NCBI GenBank assembly: GCA_965203325.1
Contig: OZ241875.1
Span: forward strand, 4,290,702-4,354,701
Reading direction: 5' to 3'
DNA length: 64,000 bases
Source of the DNA: a bacterium
GTDB lineage: Bacteria > UBA8248
In this document: positions 1,439 to 54,645 of the stretch, piece by piece
How positions within the stretch are numbered: the first letter of the stretch is position 1
Layout of the letters: each line of letters opens with the position of its first letter
Translations under genes and position numbers: made by a program
Notes under the pieces: model-generated
Database searches by the model: none
What the model was told of the DNA's origin: nothing
Seen by the model: only the letters and a program-made list of their open reading frames with translations

Positions 1439-1479
1439 TTTGAGCGGAAATTCCGGGTTTCTTGGCTAAAATCCGGCTG

Positions 1480-4600: not shown

Positions 4601-5041
4601 CAGGACGTCGAGATACTGCCCGTAAAGGGCGCGGAAATTGTTCGGCAGCATGTTCGTGAACATGACGAACAGCGTGTGGAGAAGCGGGAATGCGATCGGC
4701 ATCGCGTAGGCGCGGAAATCCGCGAAGATGAGCAGTTTGATGCCGAAAACGAGCACGATGAAAAAAACCAGGACGGTCTTGAACATCGCCGGAATCGAGA
4801 GTTTTTCGGTCAGCGAGGAGTAGAAGGTGCTGATGAAGATGATCATCAGGGCGTTGAATATGTACATATAGGGGAGAAAACCCGGGCCGACTTCCGAGAG
4901 GAACAGGGCTTCGGATACGGTGAGCCCGATGGAGAACTGAATCCCGATCAGGAAATAGAAGAAAAAGAACACCGAGAAGACGAGCAACTCTTCTTCCTGG
5001 ATGTTGAAGACTTTTTTGAGGAGTTTCTTCATGCCGGTCAC
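1634..5041 (-). CDS. 1135-aa fusion: 12-TM transporter domain (ATP:ADP antiporter/TLC-Npt-like or MFS-like) + HEAT (PBS-lyase-type) repeat region + C-terminal CAP-type cyclic-nucleotide-binding domain
   Basis: GTG start at 5041 (ATG alternative at 5032). About 480 aa with ~12 hydrophobic helices. A central ~450 aa region has repeated E..VR..A...L / DE.AA.R..A.R.LG HEAT-like units. C-terminus has the cNMP-binding signature (LSADELKILSNI...FGEIALF...RSAGARA). The specific transporter family is recalled from memory and needs an HMM check. Confidence 0.7.
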   Translation of the reverse strand: MTGMKKLLKKVFNIQEEELLVFSVFFFFYFLIGIQFSIGLTVSEALFLSEVGPGFLPYMYIFNALMIIFISTFYSSLTEKLSIPAMFKTVLVFFIVLVFGIKLLIFADFRAYAMPIAFPLLHTLFVMFTNMLPNNFRALYGQYLDVLQSKRLVPIILTGGRYGGIVGGLAIPLLIPILGSVSNLLYVWIGAIVVSVGVVQYTERRLRDHLIDDAGPKKRKTTKTASKGGNLALMRTNRYVCAFALFSFIVVILRSFQDFQYSLVFREVFPDRAQLASFLGYFTAIGSAFSLLVQTFITPRIIKRLGLGTANLLYPLTTIIGLAGMAISPGFYSAVFLRFNNKNLQESIRNAINALLYNAVSPSIRARVGAFVAGQVVAVASIVSGVALLIIKPTGLALFPLSAGQLALISLFIAFAYLAVGFFVRHEYGAALRRMLEERNLGLFRYAQEGFGPVDDESMAILRKNIREGDDDLCVFTAQMMAESGRSEIFGIILEEIPRRKGGAAAELLKILARAPGADEGEKMRPLLEEYLTCEEPLLQCAAMDAAESIGLTEETAELVHENLESGSPEVRARAVELLVRSDDLFWLANGLQTLHRMLNEEDAAARVCALRCMGELQNPRFIRRLIPYLYQDEEKVREAALEAIEVLAMNQGVDEESMEEVIRVTTSDESAAIRRRGVRQLGNKGSRESFERALTALSDVDFLVRREAVESLKNMKRKGTLSLEGSGVLSFLAPLLSRSAENGSREMSAQEIVDSLSGFAVEHLREVYGVINHLHVIERRENAPAFTMLRKALEDVVAERQLVLLELLGVIGDEKTVDTVSESLARGGSSSRAIAIETLSNFSSAGNTRVLILALEPLLLGRSTADKVSEGRKLWEIPEGSIDEVLTTYMDSENAWLQAIAVDAAGKHLESEPDEATAEWRAQFKARASEGDPYVREAAVVATRIIGKDEDELEAFLRTMENDESRLVRIQTRRDRPRDGAVGEILHGQEKFMLSTIEKALFLKGVNMFETLSADELKILSNISREIQIPEGTVLFEQGDPCDYLYVIVDGEIEIILNQANGAPRILATLGPPTSFGEIALFGDEGRSAGARASRDTSLLGIEKEPLLELIHEHPTISIAIIGQLAGIIRSQNE

Positions 5042-41060: not shown

Positions 41061-42497
41061 TTGTTCAAGAATGGGAGAAAGAACTTGTCTACGGCGCCGG
41101 AGAAGCCAAGGCTCGCGATTCACAGAAAATCTGAAAGGAAGTTGCAGTGGGAGACAATCTTCGTCATCGGGATGATTCATCTTCTCGCCCTCATGGCATT
41201 TGACCTGGATTATTTCAGCGTTTCCGGCCTCGTGGTGGGAATCGTGATGTATTTCGTCGCCGGAATGGTGGGCGTGACGATGTCCTACCACAGACTCCTG
41301 ACGCACAGGAGTTTCCAGACGTATAAGCCGGTGGAGTATTTCCTGACTTTCTGCGCTTGCCAGGCGCTTCAGAGCGGCCCAATCGAGTGGGTAGCGATGC
41401 ACCGCATTCACCACAAGGAATCGGACGAGGAGCCGGATCCGCATTCCCCGCTCGTGAATTTCCTGTGGGCGCACGCCGGGTGGCTTTTCGTCAGCCTGCC
41501 GGACGCGCACACCTACAATGAGTATTCTCGCTTCGCGAAGGATTTGCACCGCGACAAGTGGCAGCGCTTTTTCGACATGTTCTTTTTCCCCATCTATGTC
41601 TTGACCGCGGTGGCCATTTACTTCGCCGGGGAGGTGTACGGCGGCCTGGGCATGTCCTGGCTCGTCTGGGGCGTGTTCGTGCGCACGGTCGTTTTGTGGC
41701 ACTGCACCTGGGCAGTGAATTCGGTAACGCACACCTTCGGCTACCGCAATTACAATACGGATGAGGAGAGCACCAACAACTGGCTCGTCGCAATTTTCTC
41801 CTTCGGCGAGGGTTGGCACAACAACCATCATGCGGACCAGCGCTCGGCCGCTCACGGCCAGCGGTGGTTCGAGGTGGACATCACCTACCGGCTTATCAAG
41901 ATCATGGAACTCTTCGGGCTTGTCTGGGGGGTGAGAGAGCCGAGCCAGCGGGTCGTGGCGAAAAGACTCGACATCATGGTGGATGAAGAGGGCTTGCGCG
42001 CCTCCGAGGCGAGAAGGTTGGATACAGAGGACGCCCGCTCCGAAGTGCTCCACACGATGACCGACCCCACGATGCCGCTGGAAGTCCCCCGTATGCCCTC
42101 ACTGACCGAAGCGAGCGAGGCGGCGATGAAATCGGCCCGAAAGGCCATGGAATCGGTCAACACGGCGCTCGCGCACGCTTCTCACGCGCTTCGACACAAA
42201 GAGAAAGAGGATAATGCCGACCAAGCCGTTCGCCAGGTGCTGGAAAAGGGCAAGGATACGGCGATGGCGGCCATCGAGCAGGCAAAATACGCCGCGGCGG
42301 AAGCCGCGGAGTTCTCCGCACAGGCGAGCGCATTTCTGGCGGATGCGAAAGACAAGGCGACGGAATCCGCCCATCAGGCGGCTGAAAGAGCGAAGTCGCT
42401 CGCACAGGAAGCAAGCGATGCGGCTTCGAAAGCCGCCGATGAAATTGCAGTCGCGTTCAAGGGAATCGACAGGCCGGTCATCACCTCCGCGATATAA
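41061..42497 (+). CDS. Acyl-CoA/acyl-lipid delta-9 desaturase with ~170-aa C-terminal Ala/Glu/Lys-rich helical extension
   Basis: Histidine boxes HRLLTHRSF, HRIHHKESD, and NNHHADQRSAAHG. The C-terminal tail is low-complexity and amphipathic (AAIEQAKYAAAEAAEFSAQASAFLADAKDKATESAHQAAERAKSLAQEASDAASKAADE). TTG start as in the track; true start uncertain. Confidence 0.8.
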   Translation: MFKNGRKNLSTAPEKPRLAIHRKSERKLQWETIFVIGMIHLLALMAFDLDYFSVSGLVVGIVMYFVAGMVGVTMSYHRLLTHRSFQTYKPVEYFLTFCACQALQSGPIEWVAMHRIHHKESDEEPDPHSPLVNFLWAHAGWLFVSLPDAHTYNEYSRFAKDLHRDKWQRFFDMFFFPIYVLTAVAIYFAGEVYGGLGMSWLVWGVFVRTVVLWHCTWAVNSVTHTFGYRNYNTDEESTNNWLVAIFSFGEGWHNNHHADQRSAAHGQRWFEVDITYRLIKIMELFGLVWGVREPSQRVVAKRLDIMVDEEGLRASEARRLDTEDARSEVLHTMTDPTMPLEVPRMPSLTEASEAAMKSARKAMESVNTALAHASHALRHKEKEDNADQAVRQVLEKGKDTAMAAIEQAKYAAAEAAEFSAQASAFLADAKDKATESAHQAAERAKSLAQEASDAASKAADEIAVAFKGIDRPVITSAI

Positions 42498-42513
42498 TAA
42501 CGAATTCTAACAA

Positions 42514-42541
42514 AGCCGGGGCGAATTGCTCCGGCTGTTTT
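42514..42541 (+). terminator. Rho-independent terminator after desaturase (AGCCGG-loop-CCGGCT + GTTTT)
   Basis: 6-bp GC stem at 42514-42519 / 42531-42536 and T-run at 42537-42541, 17 nt after the stop codon. Confidence 0.6.
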
Positions 42542-42666
42542 GCGCTTTGGTGAGGAGAAGAACGCTCCCGCCGGAGTTCGGACGCTGTTCTCGCGGGATT
42601 TTCGAGGGGTCGGGCGAGAGAGGAATCGGGTGCCCTTGGAATTTGCGGCCCGATGCCCGGAGCGCC

Positions 42667-42695
42667 TTGACGCTCCCGCTTCCGGCTCCTAGATT
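42667..42695 (+). promoter_or_regulatory. Sigma70-like promoter TTGACG-N17-TAGATT upstream of ilvC
   Basis: -35 at 42667-42672, 17-nt spacer, -10 at 42690-42695. This leaves a ~115-nt leader before the ilvC ATG. Confidence 0.5.
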
Positions 42696-42814
42696 ATGGT
42701 CTCTTTTTCGGCGGGGTTTCCTTCGAGTAGCCGAATTTTTTCGACAGGTGGTTTTTCGACCGATGTGAATCGTTTTTGGGTGGCGCGGCGAGGGCTGCGA
42801 ATCTTGGAGGGCCA

Positions 42815-43858
42815 ATGGCCATGAGTGAAGTGAATGAAGAACAATTATTAAAAGACCTGAAAATTTACTATGACGCCGATGCGGACCTGAATCTGCTGCA
42901 GAACAGAAAAATCGCCGTCATCGGCTACGGAAGCCAGGGGCGCGCTCATGCGCTGAATGCGCAGGACAGCGGCGCGGACGTCGTCGTGGGTCTCAGGAAA
43001 TCCTCCCCGCGCTGGAAACAGGCGGAAGACGACGGCCTCGAGGTGATGGAGACGGCCGAGGCGGCCCAGGCGGGCGACATGGTGGTCATCCTGACGCAGG
43101 ATCATCTTCAGCCCGCCATCTGGAATGCGGATATCGAACCCAACATGAAAGACGGCGACGCCTTGGTGGTTGCGCATGGCTTCAACCTGAATTACGGACA
43201 AATCATTCCTCCGGACAACATCGACGTCGTGATGATAGCGCCCAAAAGCCCGGGCCATACCATGCGGTTCCAATACGAGGACGGACGCGGCGTGCCGGGT
43301 CTGGTGGCCGTTTTCCAGGACGCTACGGGCAAGGCGAAGGAGTACGCCCTGGCGTACGGCAAGGCGGTGGGCTGCGCCCGCGCCGGCATCATCGAGACGA
43401 CCATCGAGGAGGAGACCGAGACGGACCTCTTCGGCGAGCAGGCGGTGCTGTGCGGCGGCATCACCGAGTTGATTCGCGTCGCGTTCGAGACGCTCGTGGA
43501 GGCCGGCTATCAGCCCGCACTGGCGTATTTCGAGTGTTTGCACGAGGTGAAGCTGATCACCGACCTGATCTACCAGGGCGGCATCACCATGATGCGCTAT
43601 TCGGTTTCCGATACGGCCGAATACGGAGACATCACGCGGGGTAAGGTCGTGATCGACGATGCGACGCGCGAGCGGATGCGCGGAATCCTGCGTGACATCC
43701 AGACCGGCAAATTCGCCAGCGAGTGGATCAACGAGAACATGGTGAACCGGCCGACGTTCAACACCGTGGTGCGCAAGGAGAAAGAGCACGACATCGAGGT
43801 GGTCGGCCGGCGTCTGCGCGCGATGATGCCCTGGATTGAGGAGCGCGAGGTGAAATAA
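42815..43858 (+). CDS. ilvC: Ketol-acid reductoisomerase (class I KARI)
   Basis: [22 protein letters not shown] (NADPH-binding GxGxxG), with length and motifs typical of bacterial class I IlvC. RBS GGAGGG. Confidence 0.9.
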
Positions 43859-43881
43859 GGGGGAATTGGGAGACATCCCGA

Positions 43882-43917
43882 CCGGCGGAGTTCGTGCGGC
43901 TCCGCCGGTTTTTCTTT
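43882..43917 (+). terminator. Rho-independent terminator after ilvC (CCGGCGGAG-loop-CTCCGCCGG + TTTTTCTTT)
   Basis: Perfect 9-bp GC-rich stem at 43882-43890 / 43900-43908, T-tract at 43909-43917, 24 nt after the stop. Confidence 0.7.
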
Positions 43918-44020
43918 GAAAAATGTTGAATTATTTAGGGGTTATGTACTCCCCGCTTGAAAGAAAAGAGAGAGCGTCGTATTCTTGAAAGACGCTGTTT
44001 TCGGCCGCCGAGAGGTAGTG

Positions 44021-44497
44021 ATGAGCGTTCAGAAAATAAAATTTCTCATCGCGGGCATGGTCATCGTGAGCGCTTTCGCCTATCTGGCCATTTCAGGGTT
44101 CCAGAGCGAGAACCTGGTGTATTTTCTGACCGTGGATGAGGTGTCCCAAAAGGCGCCGACTCTGGGCGGCCGGGGCATCAGGGTGCAGGGCAAGATCGTG
44201 CCCCGGACGCTTCAGAAAAATCCCGACGCCATGTTGCTCGCCTTCCATATTCAGGGCGAGAAGGGGACTTTGCCCGTCAGCTACAAGGGGGTTCCCCCCG
44301 ATTTGCTCGAAAACGGGTTTCCGGTCATCGCCGAGGGAAAGCTCAACGGCAAGGGGGTCTTGGTAGCGAAGAACCTGATGGTGGCATGTCCCTCGAAATT
44401 CGAGGAAATGAAAGAAGCGGGTGAGAGCATACCGACGGATCACGAAGCCTTGATGAAAGAAGCCGTGAAGCGCAGGCAAATCTCGGAAGCTAAGTAA
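44021..44497 (+). CDS. ccmE: Cytochrome c maturation heme chaperone CcmE, cysteine-type variant
   Basis: N-terminal membrane anchor, OB-fold core (LVYFLTVDEV...GIRVQGKIVP...FHIQG...LPVSYKGVPPDLLENGFPVIAEGKL). Heme-attachment region reads LMVACPSKFEE where canonical CcmE has LAKHDENY, so Cys replaces His. Confidence 0.85.
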   Translation: MSVQKIKFLIAGMVIVSAFAYLAISGFQSENLVYFLTVDEVSQKAPTLGGRGIRVQGKIVPRTLQKNPDAMLLAFHIQGEKGTLPVSYKGVPPDLLENGFPVIAEGKLNGKGVLVAKNLMVACPSKFEEMKEAGESIPTDHEALMKEAVKRRQISEAK

Positions 44498-44569
44498 CCG
44501 CTCGCCCGCAGTAATGGCCCTTGTCTCTCGTATTGTCTTAAAAATCCGCTCCATCCCGGGAGTTTTCAG

Positions 44570-46534
44570 TTGATCGCCATTCAGTTCGGACACTACAGCT
44601 TGCTGGCATCTCTCGTCCTGGCGGTGTTCGGAATAGGGGCCTGCATCCTCGGCGCGATAAAGCGCAGGGCCGACCTCATCGCGGCAGGTAGAAACGCCGC
44701 CGTCGGTGTTTTCTGGCTGGTGAGCGGCGCGAGCGCGTGTCTCGTCTATTTGCTCATGGTGCGCGACTACCGCGTGGAGTACGTGGCCGGGCACGTGAAC
44801 AACACGCTGAACGGGTTTTACCGCTTCAGCGCGTTCTGGGGGGGGCAGGAGGGGAGCCTGCTGATGTGGCTCCTGCTCTTGTGCGTGTATGCGTTCGTCG
44901 TCATCCTGCAAAACCGCGACAGAAATCTGGAGCTGATGCCCTACGTGACGGCCACGCTGATGGCCACGGCGCTGTTCTTTCTCGTAATTCTCAATTTCGT
45001 CACCCCGCCCTTCGATACGCTCCCCGCCCCGCCTGCGGACGGACGCGGCCTGAACCCGCTCCTTCAGGACTGGGGGATGGTGATCCACCCGCCCAACCTG
45101 TACCTGGGCTATGTGGGTTTCGCCGTTCCATTCGCCTTTTGCATCGGTGCTCTGGCGAGCGGAAAGCTCGACACCGACTGGATCACCTCGACGCGGCGCT
45201 GGACGCTGTTCGCATGGTTCTTCAACGGGGTCGGCATTCTGCTCGGCGGCGCATGGGCCTACAAGGAGCTGGGTTGGGGCGGATACTGGGCGTGGGATCC
45301 GGTGGAGAACGCGAGCCTCATGCCCTGGCTCGTGGGAACCGCTTTTCTTCACTCGGTGATGATCCAGGAAAAACGCGGGATGCTCAAGGTCTGGAACGTC
45401 TCGCTCATCATCATCACATACGCCCTCACGATATTCGGCACTTTCCTCACGAGAAGCGGCATCATCTCGAGCGTACACGCCTTTGCGAACTCATCGTTCG
45501 GCTGGGCGTTTCTGGTCTACTTGCTGGTGGCGCTCGTCATATCCTTTAGCCTGATGATCTGGCGTCTGCCCCAGCTTCAAAGCGAGCACGAGATGGAGAG
45601 CTTCTTCTCGCGCGAGGCGAGCTTTCTGCTCAACAACGTCGTGCTCGTCGGCATCACGTTCGCCGTCTTCTGGGGGACGATTTTCCCGGTCGTCTCGGAA
45701 GCCGTGAAAGGGGTGAAGGTCACCGTGGGGCCGCCGTTCTTCAATCAGGTGAACGTGCCGATAGGGCTTTTGCTCATTTTGCTTTGCGGCGCGGGGCCTC
45801 TTTTCGCTTGGCGGAGGACATCGCGAAAACAGATGAACAGGAGTTTCGTCTATCCCTCCGTGGTGGCGTTGGGCGCCCTGCTCGTCCTGGTGCTCTTCGG
45901 CGTTCACCACGTCTACGCGGCGCTCGCGTTCGGGCTCAGCGCGTTCGTGGTGGGGACGATCGTTTTGGAGTATTGGCGGGGAATTTCTTCGCGCGTGCGT
46001 CACCAGGGAGAGCGCATCGTCCAGGCGGCGTGGGAGCTCACCATGCGCAACAAGAGGCGCTTCGGTGGCTATATCGTCCACCTGGGGATGGCGATCTTGT
46101 TCGTGGGCGTGGCAGCGTCCTCGGCCTATCAGGAGGTAGGCGAGGTGCGCCTTCGCCTGGGCGAGAGTTTTGCGCTAAACGGCGTGCGGATGCGCTATGA
46201 AGGGATTCGCGAGAGCGCGACGCCGCAATACCGCTCCGCCTTCGCGCGCCTGGGGGTCTACCGGGCGGGATACCGCATCGGGGAGGTGGAACCGGAAAAA
46301 AGGCTCTATTTCACGCCGCCGCAACCGACGACGGAGCCCGGCATCCGCCGGGGCGCGCGTTCGGATATCTACGCCGTCTTCGCCGAGGCGGACCCGGACG
46401 GCACGGCCACGTTCAAGTTCATGGTCAACCCGCTGGTGAACTGGGTATGGGCGGGCGGTATCGTCTTTACGCTCGGCTCGGTCGTTTGCTTCTTGCCGGA
46501 GCGTTGGGGCAGGCGAAGAAAAAAGCAGGCTTAA
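44570..46534 (+). CDS. ccmF: Cytochrome c-type biogenesis heme lyase component CcmF
   Basis: 654 aa, ~13 TM, WGGxxGxxxMWxL WWD-domain motif (FWGGQEGSLLMWLLL). TTG start 44570 with GGGAG RBS. Confidence 0.9.
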   Translation: MIAIQFGHYSLLASLVLAVFGIGACILGAIKRRADLIAAGRNAAVGVFWLVSGASACLVYLLMVRDYRVEYVAGHVNNTLNGFYRFSAFWGGQEGSLLMWLLLLCVYAFVVILQNRDRNLELMPYVTATLMATALFFLVILNFVTPPFDTLPAPPADGRGLNPLLQDWGMVIHPPNLYLGYVGFAVPFAFCIGALASGKLDTDWITSTRRWTLFAWFFNGVGILLGGAWAYKELGWGGYWAWDPVENASLMPWLVGTAFLHSVMIQEKRGMLKVWNVSLIIITYALTIFGTFLTRSGIISSVHAFANSSFGWAFLVYLLVALVISFSLMIWRLPQLQSEHEMESFFSREASFLLNNVVLVGITFAVFWGTIFPVVSEAVKGVKVTVGPPFFNQVNVPIGLLLILLCGAGPLFAWRRTSRKQMNRSFVYPSVVALGALLVLVLFGVHHVYAALAFGLSAFVVGTIVLEYWRGISSRVRHQGERIVQAAWELTMRNKRRFGGYIVHLGMAILFVGVAASSAYQEVGEVRLRLGESFALNGVRMRYEGIRESATPQYRSAFARLGVYRAGYRIGEVEPEKRLYFTPPQPTTEPGIRRGARSDIYAVFAEADPDGTATFKFMVNPLVNWVWAGGIVFTLGSVVCFLPERWGRRRKKQA

Positions 46535-46537
46535 AGC

Positions 46538-47146
46538 ATGGAGATTCTCGGCGTCATCATCGCTTGCGGGGCGGTCGGCGCGGCTTTTTTCTACACCCTT
46601 TGGCCCATCATGCGCCCTCAGACGGCCCAGGGCGTCTTGCCGGATGAGGATAGCGCGCAGCCGCTTTCGAACCGCGAGTTGACACGGCTGTTGATGGAAC
46701 GCGAGCAGGCCTACAAGAACATCATGGATATCGAGTTCGACAAGGAAATGGGCAAGCTCTCTGATGAAGACTACGCCCAGATGATGGCGCCCGCCCGAGC
46801 ACAGGCGGTGGAGGTGCTGAGGCGCCTCGACGCCCGGGGGGTGAAGGAGGGGATGACGCCCCTGCAGATGAACGAGCGCGAGGCGGCGCAGGCGGCGGCC
46901 CGGCTCGAAACAAAACGCCCACCTTCCGAGAAAATCGCAGTCGAGAAACCCCCCTCGCTGGATGAGCGTCTGGAAGCGGAAATCCTGCGCTACAGGAAAA
47001 GTGCGAGCGAATCGCAAGATGAATCTGCCGATTCTTCATCGGATGAGCAAGAGAAAAGTATGAAACCCCGGTTTTGCGCTTCTTGCGGAAACGCCGTGGA
47101 TGAAGCGGATAACTTCTGCGCCGCCTGTGGGCGCCGGCTAACTTGA
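46538..47146 (+). CDS. Hypothetical membrane-anchored protein with C-terminal zinc-ribbon (CxxC...CxxC)
   Basis: N-terminal TM (ILGVIIACGAVGAAFFYTLW), charged helical middle, C-terminal FCASCGNAVDEADNFCAACGRRL. Sits inside the ccm cluster between ccmF and ccmA. Confidence 0.5.
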   Translation: MEILGVIIACGAVGAAFFYTLWPIMRPQTAQGVLPDEDSAQPLSNRELTRLLMEREQAYKNIMDIEFDKEMGKLSDEDYAQMMAPARAQAVEVLRRLDARGVKEGMTPLQMNEREAAQAAARLETKRPPSEKIAVEKPPSLDERLEAEILRYRKSASESQDESADSSSDEQEKSMKPRFCASCGNAVDEADNFCAACGRRLT

Positions 47147-48045
47147 AACGCATCGGGCCCGCTCGACCCCTTGTATTTCTATGCCTGTTTCTTGTCTGCT
47201 CCTCACCCGTCCTTTCATACGCAGGGCCGGCGAAGCTCCAGGCTGCGCCGCCCAAGGCGAAGGTTCAAACCTCCGGTCCCACGACGACGGACCTCTCCCG
47301 GCTCAGGCTCAAGCGCAACATCCTCACCATCCGGCTCGAAAAGGGTTTTTTCGAGTTCGTGGAGATGATGGATTTCGAGAACGAGGGCAGCGCCACCATC
47401 GTCTCGAAAGGCGGCGCTCCCACGCTGCGCTTCGTTCTGCCGAAGAGCAGCAACATCAGAAACCCCCGCGCGCGCTGGGGCGCAGCGCCCGCAGGACTCG
47501 ACCCCAAGTTCCTCACTACGGTGGAGGATGAGATCCGGACGACCGAGCCTTTCCCGCCGGGGCGGAAGTTCGTCGTCCTGCTCTATCGCCTGGAGGATGA
47601 GTTCGGCGGGATCAGGGTGGAGAAGCCCATCATTTACGACACGCCGAGTTTGGCCGTCCTGCCCGAGAAAGACCGCGTGCAGGCGCAGGCTCTTGGCCTT
47701 TCCGCACAGCCCGCCGTCAAGTTTCAGAACAGGGAATACAACCGTTTCGTGGGGACAGCCAGAGCGGGTACGCTGGTGCGCATCGACGTGCAGGCGCCCG
47801 ATTCGATGGGTGGCCTCGGGGTATTCTACGTCGTGGGAGGCGTCGTGGTCGTCTTGAGTCTGGGGCTTGGGCTTTACATCCGCAAAAGAAGGAACACGGC
47901 CTACTCCGCTCAGGTGGAGCGCGAGGAGATATTGCGCGCCATCGCTATACTCGATGACAGGCTCGCGACGGGGGAGATATCCGCCGATGAGCACGCCCGC
48001 GAACGCACCCCGCGCTTCGAGCGCCTGAAAGAACTCTCGGACTAA
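47143..48045 (+). CDS. Hypothetical exported protein with C-terminal TM and SHOCT-like tail
   Basis: Signal peptide (VFLCLFLVCSSPVLSYA), ~200-aa periplasmic domain, TM (GGLGVFYVVGGVVVVLSLGLGLYI), cytoplasmic tail LATGEISADEHARER. Embedded in the ccm cluster. Confidence 0.5.
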   Translation: MKRIGPARPLVFLCLFLVCSSPVLSYAGPAKLQAAPPKAKVQTSGPTTTDLSRLRLKRNILTIRLEKGFFEFVEMMDFENEGSATIVSKGGAPTLRFVLPKSSNIRNPRARWGAAPAGLDPKFLTTVEDEIRTTEPFPPGRKFVVLLYRLEDEFGGIRVEKPIIYDTPSLAVLPEKDRVQAQALGLSAQPAVKFQNREYNRFVGTARAGTLVRIDVQAPDSMGGLGVFYVVGGVVVVLSLGLGLYIRKRRNTAYSAQVEREEILRAIAILDDRLATGEISADEHARERTPRFERLKELSD

Positions 48046-48058
48046 GAGGGCGGATGCC

Positions 48059-48763
48059 ATGCTGGAGGCTTTTGGGGTATCCAGACGCTACGGATGGAGA
48101 TGGGCGCTCAGGAATTTGTCCATTGCCGTCTCCCCCGGCGAGGCGCTCGCTCTTCTCGGCAAGAACGGATCGGGCAAGACCACGCTTCTCAAATCTTTTG
48201 CAGGTCTGCTCAGGCCGACCGAAGGGGTGGTTCAACTAAGCGGCGAGCCGCTCTCCCGCGAGGCGAAGGGCAGAATCGGCCTGCTCTCGCACGAGCCCAT
48301 GCTTTATGCGGGTTTGACGATACGTGACAACCTCGGTTATTTCGCCAGGCTCTTTGGCATGGAAAGCGGAGATATACCGGTACGGGTGAGTCTTCTGGCG
48401 GAGATGCTCGACATACGGGAGCGTCTCGACGAACCCGTGCGCGTCTTGAGCCAGGGTCTCAGGCAGCGCGCAGCACTTGCGCGCGCGCTTATACACGACC
48501 CCGAGGTCGTATTGCTCGATGAGCCTTTCTCCGGCCTCGACCCGGATGCCGCCGAACGCCTGGAAAACGTCGTGCGCGCCCTTTGCGAGGGCCGAGAACG
48601 AATCGTGGTGTTCACGACGCACGACCTGTCAAAAGCCTTCGATATGGCGGGCAAAATCGCCGTTCTGGCCGGGGGCGGGCTTGTCTATGAGGGGAGTGCT
48701 GAAAATTCAAGCGAAGAAGAAGTGCTGGCCGCGTTCGATGAATCCCCTGGAGGCGCGGCATGA
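48059..48763 (+). CDS. ccmA: Heme exporter ABC ATPase CcmA
   Basis: Walker A GKNGSGKTT, signature SQGLRQRAA, Walker B VLLDEP; small (~234 aa) as typical for CcmA. RBS AGAGGG. Confidence 0.8.
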   Translation: MLEAFGVSRRYGWRWALRNLSIAVSPGEALALLGKNGSGKTTLLKSFAGLLRPTEGVVQLSGEPLSREAKGRIGLLSHEPMLYAGLTIRDNLGYFARLFGMESGDIPVRVSLLAEMLDIRERLDEPVRVLSQGLRQRAALARALIHDPEVVLLDEPFSGLDPDAAERLENVVRALCEGRERIVVFTTHDLSKAFDMAGKIAVLAGGGLVYEGSAENSSEEEVLAAFDESPGGAA

Positions 48764-49449
48764 GGCGCTTTTTCTCCGTGCTCTCAGCGGTGGTCGAAAA
48801 AGATTTGCGCCTCGAATGGCGGACGAAGGAAAGCCTCCTCGTCATGGTGGTTTTCGCACTGCTTGTGCTCACGCTGTTCAGCTTCGCCTTCGGCCCCGGA
48901 GGCGGAAGCGGGGAGAACGCCCGCGCCGTGCAGGCGGGCATCTTGTGGATATCGTTTTTATTCGCCTGTGTCATCGGGCTGTCCCGCACCATGGGCGTGG
49001 AGCGTGAGAGCGCGGGTTTTTCTGCCATGCACGCGAGTCCGGCGGACCCTTCCGCTTTGTATCTGGGCAAAGTGGTGTCCGCGGCCGTTTTGATGGGAAT
49101 CATGGAGTTGGTGGGCTTCGCCGTTTTGACGGTTCTCTATCAGGTGGATGTGTGGAAATCGGCCGGTGCGCTGGCGCTCATCGCCATCTCCGCCACGCTT
49201 GGAATCGCGGCCGCCGGTGCCCTGTTCGCCGCCATGAGCGCGCGTACGCGAACGCGAGAGGTCTTGCTGCCCGTATTGATGTTTCCCGTTCTTGTGCCTG
49301 TTCTGATCGCCGCCGTCAAGGCGACCGAAGCCCATCTCGGCGGCGGCGGATGGGCGGATTCGAAGGATTGGATTCGCTTGATGTTGGTGTATGATGTGAT
49401 ATTCTTGGTAGCCGCCTCTTTGCTCTTTGAATATATATTAGAGGAATAA
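48760..49449 (+). CDS. ccmB: Heme exporter permease CcmB
   Basis: 229 aa, 6 TM, N-terminus FSVLSAVVEKDLRLEWRTKESL is typical of CcmB. Overlaps the ccmA stop. Confidence 0.8.
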   Translation: MRRFFSVLSAVVEKDLRLEWRTKESLLVMVVFALLVLTLFSFAFGPGGGSGENARAVQAGILWISFLFACVIGLSRTMGVERESAGFSAMHASPADPSALYLGKVVSAAVLMGIMELVGFAVLTVLYQVDVWKSAGALALIAISATLGIAAAGALFAAMSARTRTREVLLPVLMFPVLVPVLIAAVKATEAHLGGGGWADSKDWIRLMLVYDVIFLVAASLLFEYILEE

Positions 49450-49527
49450 TATCAATGGGTTATATTCATATATCTATGAAATACTTTATGCTCTGCCGCC
49501 GCTCCGAATCGCCGGGGAGGTTGCCTG

Positions 49528-50223
49528 ATGGGCCATGACGAGCGGAGAGCGTTCGGGTGGTTGCCGGTTGTAGCCTTGTGCGTCCTTGCCTTCGCTATTT
49601 TTGCGGATTTCTTCATCGCGGGAACCGACAGGCTCCAGGGGCCGCCGCAGCGGATTTTCTACATACACGTGCCATCGGCCTGGGTGGCGTTTTTCGCCTT
49701 TTTCCTGGTGTTCATCTTCTCGATCAAATATCTGGCGAAAAGGAATCCGGACGACGACATCCGAGCGCACGCCTGCGCGGAGGCGGGAGTCGTTTTCTGC
49801 ACGCTGGTGCTCATCACCGGGCCCATCTGGGCGCGTCCGGTCTGGGGCGTATGGTGGACGTGGGACGCGCGGCTCACCACCACGCTCATCCTGTGGATGA
49901 TTTACGTGGGCTATCTCATGCTGCGCGCCTACATGACGGAACCCGGGCAAAGGGCGCGATTCGCCGCCGTGATGGGGATCATCGGCTTCCTGAACGTACC
50001 CATCGTGCATATGTCGGTGGAATGGTGGCGTACGCTCCATCCCAAACCCGTAGTGATGCGCTCGGGCGGGTTAAGGGAGCTGCCCGATTCCATGCACGTG
50101 GCCTTATGGAGTTCCCTGCTGGCCTTTATGCTCCTGTTCGCCTGTTTCGCCAGAAAGCGCGCGCAAATCGAGCGTCTGAGCGCGCGGGTGGAAGAGGCGC
50201 GCGCCGCGCGGGAGGGAGGGTGA
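49528..50223 (+). CDS. ccmC: Heme exporter / heme-handling protein CcmC
   Basis: WWD domain WGVWWTWDARLTT, conserved His residues, 231 aa. Confidence 0.85.
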   Translation: MGHDERRAFGWLPVVALCVLAFAIFADFFIAGTDRLQGPPQRIFYIHVPSAWVAFFAFFLVFIFSIKYLAKRNPDDDIRAHACAEAGVVFCTLVLITGPIWARPVWGVWWTWDARLTTTLILWMIYVGYLMLRAYMTEPGQRARFAAVMGIIGFLNVPIVHMSVEWWRTLHPKPVVMRSGGLRELPDSMHVALWSSLLAFMLLFACFARKRAQIERLSARVEEARAAREGG

Positions 50224-50354
50224 TGGGCTACGTGGCGGCGGCGTACATCGTCGTTCTGGGTGGATTTGCGCTTTATTGGTGGACTCTCAAGGCGCGGATG
50301 GATATTTTGGTGGAGGAGGAGAAAAAACTGAACCCCAGGAGAGATCCTCCATGA
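50223..50354 (+). CDS. ccmD: CcmD-like small membrane protein (43 aa)
   Basis: MGYVAAAYIVVLGGFALYWWTLKARMDILVEEEKKL: single TM + charged tail. Start overlaps the ccmC stop (TGATG) and its stop overlaps the next gene's ATG. Not in the supplied ORF list because it is too short. Confidence 0.5.
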   Translation: MGYVAAAYIVVLGGFALYWWTLKARMDILVEEEKKLNPRRDPP

Positions 50355-50839
50355 TGCGTTTTGGGCTCGCCTTGTGCCTGCTGGTCGCCTTGTGTCTCTA
50401 TTCAGTAGCTCAGGCCGCGTCGCCGGGAGCCAAGACCACATTCTCAGAAGTGGCGGGCGCCCTCATGAGTCCGGTGTGTCCCGGGAAACTGCTGCACGAT
50501 TGCCCCAGCAGCGAGGGCGCTCAACTCCGCGAACTCGTGCGCCGCAAGATATTCGCCGGGGAGTCGAAAGAGCAGATTGTCCGGTATTTCGTCGAGGTAT
50601 ACGGCAGAGACGTTTTGCCCAAGCCTCCGGCGGAGGGCTTTTATCTCACCGCCTGGCTTCTTCCTTTCGGGGGGGTGTTGGCGGGTTTCGGCGTGGTCTT
50701 CGTTCTGGTGAGGTCGTGGACGAGGCGCCCCGAAGATGCCGGACATGGTGAAGGGCAACGTGAAGTCTCGCAAAAGGCCGCCTCGGACGACCCGCTGGAA
50801 AATCGCTTACAGCGCGAGCTTGGTGATTTCGAGGGTTGA
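50351..50839 (+). CDS. ccmH: CcmH/NrfF-family protein with atypical C-x6-C motif
   Basis: Signal peptide, then VCPGKLLHDC (canonical is LRCxxC). Followed by the conserved CcmH helix region (QLRELVRRKIFAGESKEQIVRYFVEVYGRDVL) and a C-terminal TM. Confidence 0.6.
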   Translation: MMRFGLALCLLVALCLYSVAQAASPGAKTTFSEVAGALMSPVCPGKLLHDCPSSEGAQLRELVRRKIFAGESKEQIVRYFVEVYGRDVLPKPPAEGFYLTAWLLPFGGVLAGFGVVFVLVRSWTRRPEDAGHGEGQREVSQKAASDDPLENRLQRELGDFEG

Positions 50840-50870
50840 GCCGCCATACTCCGCAAGTCGAGAGTTTTCA

Positions 50871-51554
50871 ATGAACTATGATCCCAAGAGTGAACTTGCC
50901 AGAAATCTCGATGGCTTCTCCCCGCACCGCCGGAGCATCAAGTGGCGGTTGATTGGGATGGTCATCAGCCTGATCCTGGTTGTCTGGATGATCGTGTATT
51001 TCGGCAATCAGGCAGAGCAGCCGGCGCAGGAGGCGGAGAGAAAGCAGGCGCAGCTGGCGCCGAAGGAGAGTGAAGGGGATGACGCCGGCTTGTACCGCGA
51101 CATGATTTTTCTCAAACAGGTCAAGCGCACCGATGCCCCGGGTGTATTGCTCAAGACCCTGGACGGGCAGAATCACTCTCTCGCGCAGCATGCGGGAAAG
51201 CTCGTCCTGGTGAATTTCTGGGCGACGTGGTGCCAGCCGTGCATCCGGGAAATGCCCTCGATGGAGCGGCTTTATGCGAAATACAAGCCGAGTGGTCTCG
51301 AGATCGTGGCGATATCGCTGGATCAGGGGAATGAAGATGATGTGCGCGAGTTCGTCGCGAAGCTGAAACTGACTTTCCCCATCGTCCTCGACCCTGAGCA
51401 CAAGGCGAAGGCGCTCTACAAGGTGCGGGGGCTGCCGACGACGTATCTCCTGGACAGGCAAGGCCAGGTAGCCGGCTACGGCGTGGGACCCCGCGAATGG
51501 GACAGCGAGGCCGCCTTCGCTCTTGTAGGTCATTTGCTTGATGAGAAAAGCTGA
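50871..51554 (+). CDS. ccmG: Thiol:disulfide oxidoreductase CcmG/DsbE/TlpA-like (thioredoxin fold)
   Basis: N-terminal TM anchor, WATWCQPC active site, TlpA/ResA-like fold. ATG 50871 is in frame with the longer track ORF 50736. Confidence 0.75.
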   Translation: MNYDPKSELARNLDGFSPHRRSIKWRLIGMVISLILVVWMIVYFGNQAEQPAQEAERKQAQLAPKESEGDDAGLYRDMIFLKQVKRTDAPGVLLKTLDGQNHSLAQHAGKLVLVNFWATWCQPCIREMPSMERLYAKYKPSGLEIVAISLDQGNEDDVREFVAKLKLTFPIVLDPEHKAKALYKVRGLPTTYLLDRQGQVAGYGVGPREWDSEAAFALVGHLLDEKS

Positions 51555-52146
51555 AGGTATGGAAGCGTCAAAAAGCTCGAGTCCCGACCAGCGAAAGGCC
51601 AAGCGGCTGGCCCTTTCGTTCATCCTGGCCCCGGTGCTGCTGACGCTGCTCTGGGCGGTGGGCGAGCGCCTGACGACAGAACGTGCCGAAGAAGCGCCCG
51701 TGACCAGTCTGGAGATCGGTGCTCAGGTTCCCCCTTTTGAATACCCGCTTCTGGGCGGTGGGAGCGCCTCTCTTGTAAGCCGGAAGAACAAGGTAGTGCT
51801 CATCAACGTGTGGGCCACGTGGTGCGTTCCGTGCCTGGATGAGATGCCGGATTTGCAGCGCCTCTACGCCCGGATGAAAAAAGACGGCGCGCCATTCGAG
51901 ATACTGGCGGTGAGCATCGACGCCCTGGGAGCGGACGCCGTCCGGAGATTCGTCGATCGCTTCGGCCTCACGTTCCCGATTCTGCTCGACCCGCGCGGGA
52001 GCATCAAGAAGCTCTACCGCACGACCGGCGTGCCGGAGACGTTCATCGTGGATCGCCAGGGCCGTCTCCTGCAGAAGATCATCGGCGCCCGCAAATGGGA
52101 TGCGCCTGCGATTGTCCAATACCTAAAACAAGCCGCCGGCTCCTAG
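51541..52146 (+). CDS. Second TlpA/DsbE-family thioredoxin-like protein
   Basis: TM anchor, WATWCVPC, same fold as the preceding gene; a paralog. Start overlaps the ccmG stop. Confidence 0.75.
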   Translation: MRKAEGMEASKSSSPDQRKAKRLALSFILAPVLLTLLWAVGERLTTERAEEAPVTSLEIGAQVPPFEYPLLGGGSASLVSRKNKVVLINVWATWCVPCLDEMPDLQRLYARMKKDGAPFEILAVSIDALGADAVRRFVDRFGLTFPILLDPRGSIKKLYRTTGVPETFIVDRQGRLLQKIIGARKWDAPAIVQYLKQAAGS

Positions 52147-52227
52147 GTGGATATCCTGAAGCGTCCAATCTTCGACATCCGGATTTCGCATTCAAGCATG
52201 GCAATATGACGATCAACAACGAACTAC

Positions 52228-52298
52228 GGGCGGACACACGGGTCCGCCCCTACGGGGTACGCGAATGGTTTCGTAGGGGAGAACCTGTGTGTTCTCCC
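52228..52298. repeat. Three contiguous palindromic stem-loops in convergent intergenic region
   Basis: GGGCGGAC-acacg-GTCCGCCC (52228-52249), CCCCTACG-loop-CGTAGGGG (52247-52279), GGGAGAAC-ctgtgt-GTTCTCCC (52277-52298). No T-tracts follow, so they are not classical terminators. Confidence 0.4.
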
Positions 52299-52320
52299 GC
52301 ATTCGCTTCCATGAAGCGCT

Positions 52321-53424
52321 TCAAAGCTCGAAACCGAGTTCGAGTTCCTCGTTCAGCCTTTGCATCTGCTCCAGAACGGCAGGGGTGATGGGCACGCCGA
52401 TGCGCCTGTTCTCCTCTTCGGCGATCGCCTCCGGTTCGCCGTGAATGTAGATGCGGTCGTGTCCCGGCGCCTTCTTCGCGCCCCGGATGGTCTCGAAGAG
52501 TTTTCCCATGTCGCCGAACATGGCGGATAAGTCCCTGAATCCCGACATCTTGATCGCGCCCATGAAGTGGCCCGTGGCGGATTTCGCCGTACCCGCAGCA
52601 CCCGCCATGCGGCTCTCCAGGCCCGCGCCCGAGAGCACGCCGCACAGAAGCTCGATCATGAGCTGGAGGCCATAGCCCTTGTGGCCGCCGTTCTCGTCAC
52701 CTTCGCCGCCCAGGGGCGCGAGCGGCACCTCGTAGTTCAGGATGCTCTTCTCGTTGAGCGTCGGCGTTCCCATCGAGGAGAGCACCCAGCCTTTGGGGAC
52801 TTCACGGCCTTCGCGCAGGGCCGTCTCGATTTTGCCCACGGCCGTCACGGCGGTGGCCATGTCGAGGTGAAAGTCCGTGCCGCCCGGTCCGCCGGGTATC
52901 GCCACGCTCATCGGGTTGGTGCCGAAAAGCGCCTCCCCCCCGAATGTGGGGGCGGTGCGGCGTCCGCCGTTCGTCATGCTGATGCCGATGAAGCCCGCCT
53001 CCATCGCCTTTTGGGCCCAATAGCCCGCGTAGCCGAAGTGGCTGCTGTTGCGCACGGTCACGAAGCCGGAACCGTGCCTTTCCGCCATGGCGAGAGCCTC
53101 GTCCATCGCGCGGTTTGAGGCGACGATGCCGATGGCGTCGTCCGCGTCGAGAAGGCCGGTGGTGTCGCTTCCTTTGTGGAACTTCATGTCGGGCCTATTG
53201 TTGAGCACGCCGTTTTCGAGGCGGACCATGAAAAACGTCAGCCGTGCGGCCCCGTGGCTGCGGATGCCTCTCAAATCGGCACTGACCAATACTTTCGCCA
53301 CGAGGCGGGCGTCGTCCTCGGGCACGTCCTTGCTGCGGAATATGGTGTAGACGAACTCTTCGATGACTTCTGCGGGAAAGCGCACCGTGCCTTCGGGCAG
53401 GGGACCGGACTCGACCATGAGCAT
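52321..53424 (-). CDS. Ldh2-family oxidoreductase, paralog C
   Basis: SADLRGIRSHGAARL and SSHFGYAGYWA match the Ldh_2 family; 367 aa. Confidence 0.8.
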   Translation of the reverse strand: MLMVESGPLPEGTVRFPAEVIEEFVYTIFRSKDVPEDDARLVAKVLVSADLRGIRSHGAARLTFFMVRLENGVLNNRPDMKFHKGSDTTGLLDADDAIGIVASNRAMDEALAMAERHGSGFVTVRNSSHFGYAGYWAQKAMEAGFIGISMTNGGRRTAPTFGGEALFGTNPMSVAIPGGPGGTDFHLDMATAVTAVGKIETALREGREVPKGWVLSSMGTPTLNEKSILNYEVPLAPLGGEGDENGGHKGYGLQLMIELLCGVLSGAGLESRMAGAAGTAKSATGHFMGAIKMSGFRDLSAMFGDMGKLFETIRGAKKAPGHDRIYIHGEPEAIAEEENRRIGVPITPAVLEQMQRLNEELELGFEL

Positions 53425-53589
53425 CTCCTAAGAAAATGTTGATTTGGCACTGCGAGAAAGTTGCGCCATCTTAGCCCGTCTTTGCGCTTTTCGGGAAGTC
53501 GCGCCGGGGTGCGGTTCGCCTTGCGGGTTGCGCTTTTGTTTTGTCAAAATGCGCTTCTTTTCGGGAATGCTGTCTGGAACAGGGGAGAG

Positions 53590-54645
53590 ATGAACGTGGC
53601 TCGCATAGCGGTGGTGCGCGGAGACGGAATAGCGAACGAGGTCATGCCCGAGGCGGAGGAGACGCTGCGGGCGGCGGCCGGGGCGGCCTCGTTTCCGGTG
53701 GAGTTCGAGTACTTCGACTGGGGGAGCGATCGGTATCTGGAACAGGGCAGGGGGATGCCCGAAGACGGCTGCGATACCCTTCGCGCAAGTTTCGACGCCG
53801 TGTTTCAAGGGGCCATCGGCGACCCGAGGGTTCCCGGTTCGATCGTGCAGGAGGAGGTGATTCTGGGGGTGCGCTTCGGGCTGGACTTATACGCCAACAT
53901 CCGGCCTTGCAGGCTCTACCATGAGGATTTGACGCCGCTCAAGAATAAAGGGGCGGGCGACATCGACCACGTCGTGGTGCGCGAGAACACCGAGGGCCTG
54001 TTCGTGAACGTGGGCGGGTTTTTCAAGCAGGGGACGAAAGACGAGGTTGCCCTGCAGGAAGAGGTTCATACCTACAAGGGGGTGGAGCGCGTCATCCGGG
54101 CGTCGTTCGAGTTCGCGAGGCGCCACAAGCGCAAAAAAGTCACCATGGCGGACAAGGCGAGCGGGCTTCGCTACGCAGGCGGAATATGGCGGCGCGTGTT
54201 CGACGAGGTGCGGGCGGATTTCGGGGATATCGAGTCCGAAGCCAAGCACATCGACGCGGTGGCGATGGAGGTGATTCAGCACCCGGCGGAATTCGACGTC
54301 ATCGTCACCAACAACATGTTCGGCGACATTATGAGCGATATCACCTCGGGTCTCGTGGGCGGGCTGGGCCTGGCGCCTTCCGCGAACGTGAATCTCGAGG
54401 GGGTCTCGATGTTCGAGCCGGTGCACGGCACAGCGCCCGACATCTACGGGCGCGGTATTGCCAACCCGATGGCGGCCATTTTGACGGGCGCTTTGTTGCT
54501 GGATCATCTGGGCTGCGGGGCGGGTGGAGCCTCTATCCGGCGCGCCGTGGAAGAGGCCATCGCGCACGGGGAGCGCACGGCGGACATCGGAGGGAGTTTG
54601 AGCACGAAAGAATGCGGTGATGCCGTGAGGAATAGATTGAGATAG
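53590..54645 (+). CDS. Isocitrate/isopropylmalate-dehydrogenase-family enzyme, tartrate/D-malate dehydrogenase-like
   Basis: IAVVRGDGIANEV..., RENTEGLF, NMFGDIMSD are signature motifs of the Iso_dh family. RBS AGGGGAGAGA before ATG 53590. Confidence 0.8.
   Translation: MNVARIAVVRGDGIANEVMPEAEETLRAAAGAASFPVEFEYFDWGSDRYLEQGRGMPEDGCDTLRASFDAVFQGAIGDPRVPGSIVQEEVILGVRFGLDLYANIRPCRLYHEDLTPLKNKGAGDIDHVVVRENTEGLFVNVGGFFKQGTKDEVALQEEVHTYKGVERVIRASFEFARRHKRKKVTMADKASGLRYAGGIWRRVFDEVRADFGDIESEAKHIDAVAMEVIQHPAEFDVIVTNNMFGDIMSDITSGLVGGLGLAPSANVNLEGVSMFEPVHGTAPDIYGRGIANPMAAILTGALLLDHLGCGAGGASIRRAVEEAIAHGERTADIGGSLSTKECGDAVRNRLR

Follow-up and report, generated by a model that had tools for sequence, protein, structure and literature searches.

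An apparently undescribed gene pair in a System I* cytochrome c maturation operon as a candidate two-gene equivalent of CcmI

Background

The locus studied here raises the question of what two genes without an assigned family, X1 and X2, contribute to an operon for cytochrome c maturation (ccm). The operon lies at 44021-52146 on the plus strand of a 64,000-nucleotide stretch of bacterial DNA (GTDB lineage UBA8248; assembly GCA_965203325.1, contig OZ241875.1, positions 4,290,702 to 4,354,701 of the forward strand), which as a whole is called the window below. It is a single compact operon in the order ccmE-ccmF-X1-X2-ccmA-B-C-D-ccmH-tlpA-tlpA, and its eleven co-directional genes were found at the coordinates that a first-pass annotation of the same DNA had given. 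That annotation considered the two embedded genes candidates for novel accessory factors of the maturation system, for example substitutes for CcmI. Our comparisons support the accessory role and qualify the novelty, because X1 appears to be a divergent homologue of the N-terminal domain of CcmI and is therefore not wholly new.

The known proteins closest to X1 and X2 are CcmI/CycH of Rhodobacter capsulatus and Pseudomonas aeruginosa, the C-terminal half of Escherichia coli CcmH, and the paralogue NrfG. In canonical systems, the first transmembrane (TM) helix and the cytoplasmic loop of CcmI are the part that acts with CcmF and CcmH. The whole protein consists of a membrane domain with two TM helices and a cytoplasmic loop, followed by a periplasmic tetratricopeptide repeat (TPR) domain that is thought to bind apocytochromes, and the requirement for it differs among organisms (PMC3884852, PMC3601427).

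We infer that X1 and X2 probably make up a two-gene, or split, equivalent of CcmI with a periplasmic arm that is not of the TPR type. The idea of a CcmI-like pair is supported by recurrent and colinear matches of X1 relatives to the CcmI N-terminal domain, by the occurrence of X1-like genes in the genomic slot of ccmI, and by X2 homologues that follow X1-like genes elsewhere. The two genes and their parts are as follows (aa, amino acids; Zn, zinc).

46538-47146, plus strand: X1, 202 aa, membrane protein resembling CcmI-N, with a putative Zn ribbon at its C-terminus
46541-46834, plus strand: N-terminal module of X1, TM helix 1 plus a predicted cytoplasmic helical hairpin (family-level match to TIGR03142, hhalign, structure model)
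47069-47140, plus strand: Zn ribbon of X1, CxxC-x10-CxxC (Cys4), aa 178-201 (PF13240)
47143-48045, plus strand: X2, 300 aa, predicted exported single-pass membrane protein
47806-48039, plus strand: C-terminal TM helix and helical tail of X2, resembling the X1 N-module and SHOCT

Both genes are packed as tightly as first described. Three nucleotides separate the TAA of ccmF from the ATG of X1, the TGA of X1 overlaps the TTG start of X2 by 4 nucleotides (TTGA), and X2 is followed by ccmA after 13 nucleotides; the gap and the overlap around the two genes suggest translational coupling.

X1 and the N-terminal domain of CcmI

The description of the first unknown gene as a TM helix with a zinc ribbon fits X1, which has an N-terminal TM helix and a C-terminal CxxC...CxxC domain of putative Zn-ribbon type. 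Its PF13240 score of 23.4 bits falls slightly below the cutoff of 25, and many homologues carry a precomputed assignment to this family. None of the four cysteines varies among 22 X1 homologues from Nitrospinota or among 74 from a wider set. In the AlphaFold model (mean predicted local distance difference test score, pLDDT, of 71), a TM helix at aa 2-25 is followed by a hairpin at aa 43-99 (pLDDT about 90), two more helices and a Zn-ribbon knuckle. One of these parts is a helix at aa 141-160 with a conserved amphipathic segment, LDERLEAEILRYRK (aa 141-154; window 46958-46999). Some remote family members (P0136, P0139, P0164) have the amphipathic helix tandemly doubled, as LDEEIEAEVQRLRRR ... 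LEAEIEAEVRRLRAR.

A profile of the Nitrospinota X1 proteins, searched against 1.84 billion representative sequences, retrieved 1043 proteins at E<1e-10. Many of the family members are 90-250 aa long and begin with a TM helix that closes on ...YPL(L/F)R; the motif LL-x-ER(D/E)-x2-Y-x-AIK(D/E)LEFD-x3-GKLS-x-EDY comes next, and after it zero to three Zn ribbons. The universally conserved part of X1 is the CcmI-like hairpin. By the names of their sources, X1-like proteins come from Chloroflexota, Candidatus Methylomirabilis and Nitrospinota.

The sole recurrent NCBIfam match of the family is TIGR03142, the CcmI N-terminal domain, which was matched by 49 of 74 full-length members and by 24 of 34 isolated N-modules; other families were matched by at most three members among the N-modules. 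The alignment is colinear, with residues from about 5 to 80 of the X1 family running along model positions 3 to 70 or 84 of 118, i.e., TM1 and the cytoplasmic loop. An hhalign comparison of the X1 family with the RefSeq-annotated CcmI N-termini of P. aeruginosa and Methylophaga gave a probability of 89% (E=2e-6) and brought the TM helix and the PLLR and D-x3-G-x-L-T-x-E motifs into register. We infer at the level of the family that the X1 N-module is homologous, if divergently so, to the CcmI N-terminal domain. The likeness extends over the TM helix, the ...PLLR ending and the cytoplasmic motif D-x3-G-x-L-[ST]-x-E-[DE], and includes the position of X1-like genes directly 3' of ccmH or ccmF.

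Other searches with X1 gave little. Foldseek found nothing below E=0.2 for the X1 model in the PDB, the N-module profile had no meaningful match among PDB sequences, and a Pfam search of the N-modules returned no recurrent family. A role resembling that of an anti-sigma factor was considered and rejected, since X1 has its domains in the reverse order and there is no sigma factor gene in the vicinity. A thiol shuttle of the CcdA/DsbD kind was likewise set aside, X1 having a single TM helix without membrane cysteines and a Cys4 domain that is often missing.

X1-like genes in the position of ccmI

Distant X1-like genes have a near-exclusive ccm context. Each of the seven that were looked up belongs to a ccm cluster and stands directly after ccmF or ccmH. 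Scanning metagenomes with a narrower alignment of the X1 N-module yielded 80 loci, which were scored with hidden Markov models (HMMs) and phmmer searches built from the window genes; many of the contigs are only 1-2 kb long. At least one unambiguous ccm gene was present in 61 of 79 X1-like loci, and among the 60 loci with at least 300 bp of upstream sequence, ccmF or ccmH stood immediately 5' of the X1-like gene in 52, while most of the other loci had ccmA-B-C immediately 3' of it. This slot corresponds to the position of ccmI in canonical clusters (...E-F-G-H-I), where ccmI follows ccmH, and X1 of the window, directly after ccmF, shows the adjacency to ccmH or ccmF that is expected of a CcmI.

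One protein (P0263) apparently joins CcmH to an X1-like part in 339 aa, carries the name CcmH in the Joint Genome Institute (JGI) annotation and is encoded on a single 4-kb contig.

X2, a frequent partner of X1

X2 had been described as an exported protein with a SHOCT tail. Export is in line with the predicted signal peptide (aa 1-27), whereas the SHOCT assignment remains sub-threshold, the tail of the window protein reaching 16 bits (E=0.01) against PF09851 with its cutoff of 27; X2 tails overall score 16-21 bits (E=0.01 to 3e-4), and none passes. Apart from this, X2 has a TM helix at aa 222-245 and a predicted cytoplasmic SHOCT-like hairpin at aa 255-299, and the AlphaFold model (mean pLDDT 82) places a beta-sandwich with values above 90 at aa 45-217. 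The window protein has no Pfam or NCBIfam match at E<0.01. Conserved across the superfamily are N80, P100, P139/G140, Y148, Y165 and T167, and the periplasmic domain has no conserved Cys, His or Met, which argues against a role in haem ligation or thiol redox chemistry and in favor of a domain that binds or serves as a scaffold. The M1 aminopeptidase N-domain and ribophorin I, which Foldseek returned for X2, were not used to assign a function, given TM-scores of about 0.3.

In a simple sequence search, X2 appeared confined to Nitrospinota. In three remote loci (L040-L042), the X1-like gene is followed by a gene for a protein of 381-389 aa without a Pfam match. This protein is built like X2, with a signal peptide, a periplasmic region rich in beta structure, then a TM helix and finally a tail of the form ...LLREIA-x-LDD-x4-GEI-x-E-x-Y. 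The alignment of the Nitrospinota X2 proteins matched these three proteins in hhalign with a probability of 99.5% (E=2e-22) over 254 columns. When the X2 HMM was iterated without restriction, it strayed to X1-like proteins in the fourth round, through a fusion open reading frame (ORF) and the TM-plus-hairpin module that the two proteins share, and the iterated search was therefore run after removal of the X1-like ORFs and the fusion ORF. Of 46 remote loci for which 1.2 kb or more of downstream sequence was available, 14 had an X2-like gene directly 3' of the X1-like gene; in loci without one, ccmA or ccmC directly follows the X1-like gene, or the cluster ends there. From this we take X1 to be the core gene, often accompanied by X2. 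The shared module is also visible in the X1-N HMM, which matches the C-terminal TM helix and tail of several remote and Bacillaceae X2-like proteins over its full length (E=1e-9 to 1e-6).

The fusion ORF (L089, contig Ga0209317_1004533, positions 2849-4375) encodes 508 aa in which an X1-like part is joined to an X2-like part in the order TM1, CcmI-N motif, Zn ribbon, TM2, periplasmic domains, TM3 and tail. At the junction the X1-like part runs into a hydrophobic segment that lacks the n-region of Met, Lys or Arg. Its predicted topology would be that of CcmI plus one extra anchor, which is supportive.

A 315-aa protein encoded between ccmE and ccmF at another locus (L037, 3846-4793) combines a signal peptide with a periplasmic region rich in beta structure and a TM helix, and its cytoplasmic tail ends in a Zn ribbon and not in a SHOCT-like hairpin. 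It resembles a domain-shuffled relative of X2, and the X2 HMM did not match it.

The pair in cultured Bacillaceae

The best plasmid matches to the window CcmE were found in Metabacillus sp. B2-18 (pB218, NZ_CP088246.1) and Cytobacillus firmus M7 (p1, NZ_CP107028.1), and in the RefSeq annotation both plasmids have the order SHOCT (51 aa)-ccmE(CPSKY)-F-H-hyp116-hyp310-A-B-C-D-tlpA, where hyp stands for a 'hypothetical protein' of 116 or 310 aa. The X1-N HMM recognises the product of hyp116 (E=9e-14), which lacks a Zn ribbon, and the X2 HMM recognises that of hyp310 (E=1e-15). On pB218 the X1-like and X2-like proteins have the accessions WP_098796865.1 and WP_098796863.1, respectively. A tblastn search of plasmids with a remote, non-Nitrospinota X1-like N-module gave no match; as these orthologues were reached through ccmE synteny and HMMs, searches at the level of BLAST evidently miss the X1 family. 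The Bacillaceae loci share the building blocks of the window, including an X1-like/X2-like pair before ccmA, but differ from it in the ribbon-less X1-like protein, in ccmH preceding the pair, in having one thioredoxin gene and in the SHOCT gene before ccmE. Judged by these matches, the pair spans at least Nitrospinota and Bacillota and is not specific to one lineage.

The 51-aa 'SHOCT domain-containing protein' encoded directly 5' of ccmE on the two plasmids (L124, 8688-8843; L125, 8597-8752) starts with MSCCGSS... and has a motif of the G-x-IS-x-EEY type, as do the X1 hairpin and the X2 tail.

Conservation in Nitrospinota

The window comes from a bacterium of the Nitrospinota. All close homologues of X1 and X2 derive from metagenome-assembled genomes (MAGs) of Nitrospinota/Nitrospinae or from MAGs labeled Tectomicrobia, among them a MAG chromosome (OZ241996.1) with 98% identity over X2. 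Relatives lacking the two inserted genes, which the first-pass annotation had named as an observation that would speak against its proposal, were not seen among the sufficiently covered Nitrospinota loci; every locus with enough sequence keeps the order E-F-X1-X2-A-B-C-D-H-Tlp-Tlp. Nitrospinota synteny reaches beyond the operon, from a fatty-acid desaturase gene and ilvC through ccmE-F-X1-X2-A-B-C-D-H-tlpA-tlpA to Ldh_2 and an isocitrate/isopropylmalate dehydrogenase gene, and this neighborhood persists down to 43-50% identity of X1 and X2. Against four orthologues, dN/dS was 0.15-0.24 for X1, 0.13-0.22 for X2 and 0.17-0.32 for CcmA. X1 and X2 are real genes under purifying selection and no chance ORFs.

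System I* identity of the locus

The window CcmE has the motif ...VACPSKFEE near aa 126-130, with Cys at the position of the haem-binding His and Phe at that of the usual Tyr. In canonical CcmE, this Tyr ligates the haem iron. The exchange of His for Cys defines the System I* type, a variant of cytochrome c maturation known from archaea, from Desulfovibrio and from Chloroflexi and Firmicutes (Allen et al. 2006 and Goddard et al. 2010, reviewed in PMC3601427), and by this motif and its gene content the locus is assigned to that known variant. The commonest System I* motif in a 2011 review was CPSKY, and four Tyr-to-Phe cases were then known (PMC3601427). CPSKF is present in all 29 Nitrospinota orthologues, whereas the remote loci have C-x3-Y/F in 30 of 30 cases, CPSKY in 21 of them and CPSKF in one. 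CcmE encoded beside X1-like genes was thus of the Cys type in 59 of 59 cases (29 Nitrospinota, 30 remote).

The gene set of System I*, CcmA, B, C, (D) and CcmF, is present in the window. The original definition also asked that CcmH and CcmG be missing, and in this respect the window deviates, as it has a CcmH-like gene and two thioredoxin genes; that absence is not defining, since about one third of System I* bacteria keep CcmH (PMC3601427). The roles of CcmH and CcmI in System I* are poorly settled in the review literature, and both are variably present. The window thus resembles other System I* loci in its Cys-type CcmE, in ccmE and ccmF heading the cluster and in the retention of CcmH, and differs by the C-x7-C motif of its CcmH-like gene, by having two TlpA-type thioredoxins and by its X1/X2 pair.

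Pfam and NCBIfam searches assigned families to most proteins of the operon, and the gene content E-F-x-x-A-B-C-D-H-G-G' of the first-pass annotation was confirmed. The order is indeed non-canonical, as had been said, but it is not peculiar to the window, because ccmE-F-(H)-X1-(X2)-A-B-C is the usual order in the related clusters sampled and an E-F-first arrangement is the common layout of System I* (Cys-CcmE) clusters. The remaining genes of the operon are listed here.

44021-44497, plus strand: ccmE, haem chaperone of the System I* type (PF03100, 82 bits)
44570-46534, plus strand: ccmF, haem lyase subunit (PF16327, E=2e-70; PF01578, E=3e-40; TIGR00353, 492 bits)
48059-48763, plus strand: ccmA, ABC ATPase (PF00005; TIGR01189, 123 bits, slightly below the cutoff of 131.6)
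48760-49449, plus strand: ccmB (PF03379, 113 bits)
49528-50223, plus strand: ccmC (PF01578; TIGR01191, 163 bits)
50220-50354, plus strand: ccmD-like ORF of 44 aa with a single TM helix, 3' of ccmC, at a conserved position and without a family match
50348-50839, plus strand: ccmH-like (PF03918, 77 bits), with the C-x7-C motif SPVCPGKLLHDC in place of LRCxxC
50868-51554, plus strand: TlpA/ResA-type thioredoxin 1, membrane-anchored, WATWCQPC (WCQPC; PF00578, PF08534)
51556-52146, plus strand: TlpA/ResA-type thioredoxin 2, membrane-anchored, WATWCVPC (WCVPC; PF00578, PF08534)

The 44-aa ORF, for which Pfam and NCBIfam gave no family, is kept at the same position in most Nitrospinota loci, and the Bacillaceae loci have an annotated 'CcmD family protein' there. 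The CcmH-like protein has the PF03918 domain but lacks the first Cys of the CxxC and with it the LRCxxC redox motif; its SPVC-x7-C motif recurs in 28 of 28 Nitrospinota orthologues. CcmH-like proteins of the remote System I* clusters (L037-L123) mostly have five cysteines in the pattern CxCxC-x6-C-x4/5-C, and those of the Bacillaceae have C-x8-C.

Duplication of the thioredoxins had been noted from their WATWCQPC and WATWCVPC motifs, and the two are indeed tandem paralogues with 48% mutual identity. They resemble ResA, TlpA and CcmG (DsbE) in their membrane-anchored fold, their WCxPC active site and their place in a cytochrome maturation cluster, but fall below the equivalog cutoffs of DsbE, ResA and TlpA and are duplicated in tandem. 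The best NCBIfam match of thioredoxin 1 is NF002854 (ResA; 125 bits, cutoff 170), and its score against TIGR00385 (DsbE; 48.5 bits, cutoff 123) gives no equivalog-level match to CcmG/DsbE, so that by its domain matches it is assigned as a generic TlpA/ResA-type thioredoxin with WCxPC.

The flanks of the operon (41061-54645; also L001-L003) encode a desaturase, IlvC, Ldh_2, an Iso_dh-family dehydrogenase and a cupin in an unusually stable order. The clusters at L038 and L043, of the ccmE-F-X1-ccmC type without ccmAB nearby, have a conserved 78-aa coiled-coil-like ORF without a Pfam match after ccmC and ccmD (8621-8857 and 8475-8711, respectively). A multiheme cytochrome at the window start had been proposed as a client of the system, and a membrane-anchored protein with five CXXCH motifs and cytochrome c/c7/c3-like matches is present there (2-1465, minus strand, truncated by the window start). 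It lies 42 kb away and adds nothing specific, because any c-type cytochrome would be a client. Beside it, at 1634-5041 on the minus strand, is a gene for a protein of 1135 aa with HEAT repeats and a C-terminal cyclic-nucleotide-binding domain.

A proposed split CcmI equivalent and the alternatives

By the roles that homology assigns to the standard parts, CcmABCD would load haem onto the Cys-type CcmE, CcmF and the variant CcmH would transfer it to apocytochromes, and the two membrane-anchored thioredoxins would hold the CXXCH thiols reduced. In a split CcmI equivalent, X1 would supply the CcmI-type membrane anchor and cytoplasmic hairpin and dock to CcmF(H), its Zn ribbon being an optional cytoplasmic add-on. 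X2 would supply the periplasmic beta-sandwich arm that binds or positions apocytochromes at the haem lyase, a putative chaperone role; its TM helix would anchor the arm, and its SHOCT-like hairpin, which resembles that of X1, probably pairs with it. The topology of both proteins is predicted from the positive-inside rule, with Arg/Lys immediately after the TM helix of X1 and RKRRN directly after that of X2, and the fusion ORF is consistent with it. Compared with CcmI, the module would be divided over two genes, with a Zn ribbon in X1 where CcmI has TM2, a periplasmic arm in X2 that is predicted to be a beta-sandwich instead of a TPR domain, and an additional C-terminal TM helix and SHOCT-like tail; X1-like genes, moreover, were seen only alongside Cys-type CcmE.

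Several observations weigh against a split CcmI equivalent. The best TIGR03142 match of the X1 family (E=5e-7, 28.2 bits) stays under the curated cutoff of 29.3, and X1 of the window alone did not match this model in a single-sequence search. X1 has no second TM helix like that of CcmI, its one TM helix being followed by soluble helices and the Zn ribbon; TIGR03142 positions beyond about 84 of 118 have no counterpart in X1, and an equivalent of TM2 is found only in the L089 fusion. This fusion is a single metagenome ORF and therefore not decisive. The CcmH::X1-like fusion P0263 is given little weight, because two TM helices lie between the periplasmic CcmH and the supposedly cytoplasmic X1 domain and because it is known from a single contig; it may be a read-through or a sequencing artefact. 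No TPR family was matched by X1 or X2 in Pfam or NCBIfam, and the Foldseek matches of X2 in the PDB are weak and of a generic beta-sandwich kind (TM-score about 0.3, root-mean-square deviation about 10). The gene pair is not obligatory, as X2 is missing from about 70% of the remote X1-containing clusters; the Nitrospinota X2 tail aligned with the X1 family at E=6e-4 but with a probability of only 28%, and the Zn ribbon is missing from 31 of 86 remote X1-like ORFs (about one third). Lastly, a 'CcmI' of the Desulfovibrio System I* is reported to enhance maturation without being required for it (PMC3601427), and it may or may not be a member of the X1/X2 family; if it is one, part of the present proposal would already be known from experiment.

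The least unlikely of the alternatives, although still unlikely, is that X1 and X2 are small scaffolds for assembly or stability that bind no substrate directly and link CcmF(H) with CcmABCD/E or with the Sec translocon. Their position between the ccmEF(H) and ccmABC(D) blocks, the TM-plus-hairpin module common to both, which would suit oligomerisation, the sub-threshold SHOCT-like matches and the lack of conserved cofactor-type residues are all in keeping with this. Such a role is, however, hardly separable from a CcmI-like one, since the N-terminal domain of CcmI is itself thought to work via CcmF/H, and the large, well-folded periplasmic domain of the X2 model (pLDDT above 90) suggests a ligand or protein partner in the periplasm. 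We give a somewhat smaller chance to an association with Ccm on the haem or redox side, with no chaperoning of apocytochromes. The Cys4 domain of X1 might then bind iron in the manner of rubredoxin, or sense cytoplasmic haem or redox state and couple it to CcmF or CcmABC, and this could help System I* CcmE to give up haem from its unusually stable Cys-haem thioether, a bond whose cleavage has been called chemically puzzling (PMC3601427). The exclusive company of Cys-type CcmE, the invariance of the four cysteines wherever the ribbon is present and rubrerythrin- and rubredoxin-like names and models among the weak X1 matches speak for it. Yet the Cys4 domain is absent from the 31 remote ORFs mentioned above and from the Bacillaceae orthologues, and so cannot be the core function; electrons would have no obvious path along the single TM helix, in which no polar or Cys residue is conserved, and what is universally conserved in X1 is the CcmI-like hairpin.

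A more ambitious reading, to which we assign a low probability, would see in X1 and X2 more than a degenerate CcmI, namely a dedicated transmembrane coupling device specific to maturation with Cys-type CcmE. The cytoplasmic Cys4 domain and the hairpins would perceive or pass on some cytoplasmic input, such as reductant, haem status or a nascent apocytochrome bound to the ribosome or Sec, and the beta-sandwich at CcmF would enable the release of haem from the Cys-thioether of CcmE, for which we know of no mechanism. That the two genes are mere passengers without a role in cytochrome c maturation, such as an inserted membrane stress or signaling pair, seems very improbable. The absence of curated family assignments and of X2 from many clusters would fit this, but ccm clusters of Nitrospinota, of Bacillota and of many unassigned metagenome lineages retain the genes, with the adjacency to ccmF or ccmH (52/60) and the ccm context of the looked-up contigs (7/7) described above, and the homology to the CcmI N-terminal domain, the tight translational coupling and the purifying selection likewise argue against it.

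Significance

System I* itself, the CPSKF variant of CcmE and the gene order are already known, and the established scheme of cytochrome c biogenesis is not overturned by our analysis. The X1/X2 pair, by contrast, appears to be undescribed: Pfam and NCBIfam hold no model for it, the generic RefSeq names of such genes are 'zinc ribbon domain-containing protein' and 'hypothetical protein', and a full-text search of the accessible literature found no paper combining ccmF with 'zinc ribbon'. System I*, whose accessory subunits are poorly defined, serves environmentally important lineages, including the nitrite-oxidizing Nitrospinota, Chloroflexota, NC10, some Bacillota, sulfate reducers and archaea. 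If X1 and X2 are indeed a split equivalent of CcmI, the slot of the 'missing CcmI' would be filled for much of System I*, and the annotation of genomes, those of nitrite oxidizers, Chloroflexota and NC10 in particular, would be improved. Culturable Bacillaceae with the pair on plasmids would provide a directly testable handle, and could reveal how apocytochromes are presented to CcmF in the absence of a TPR chaperone.

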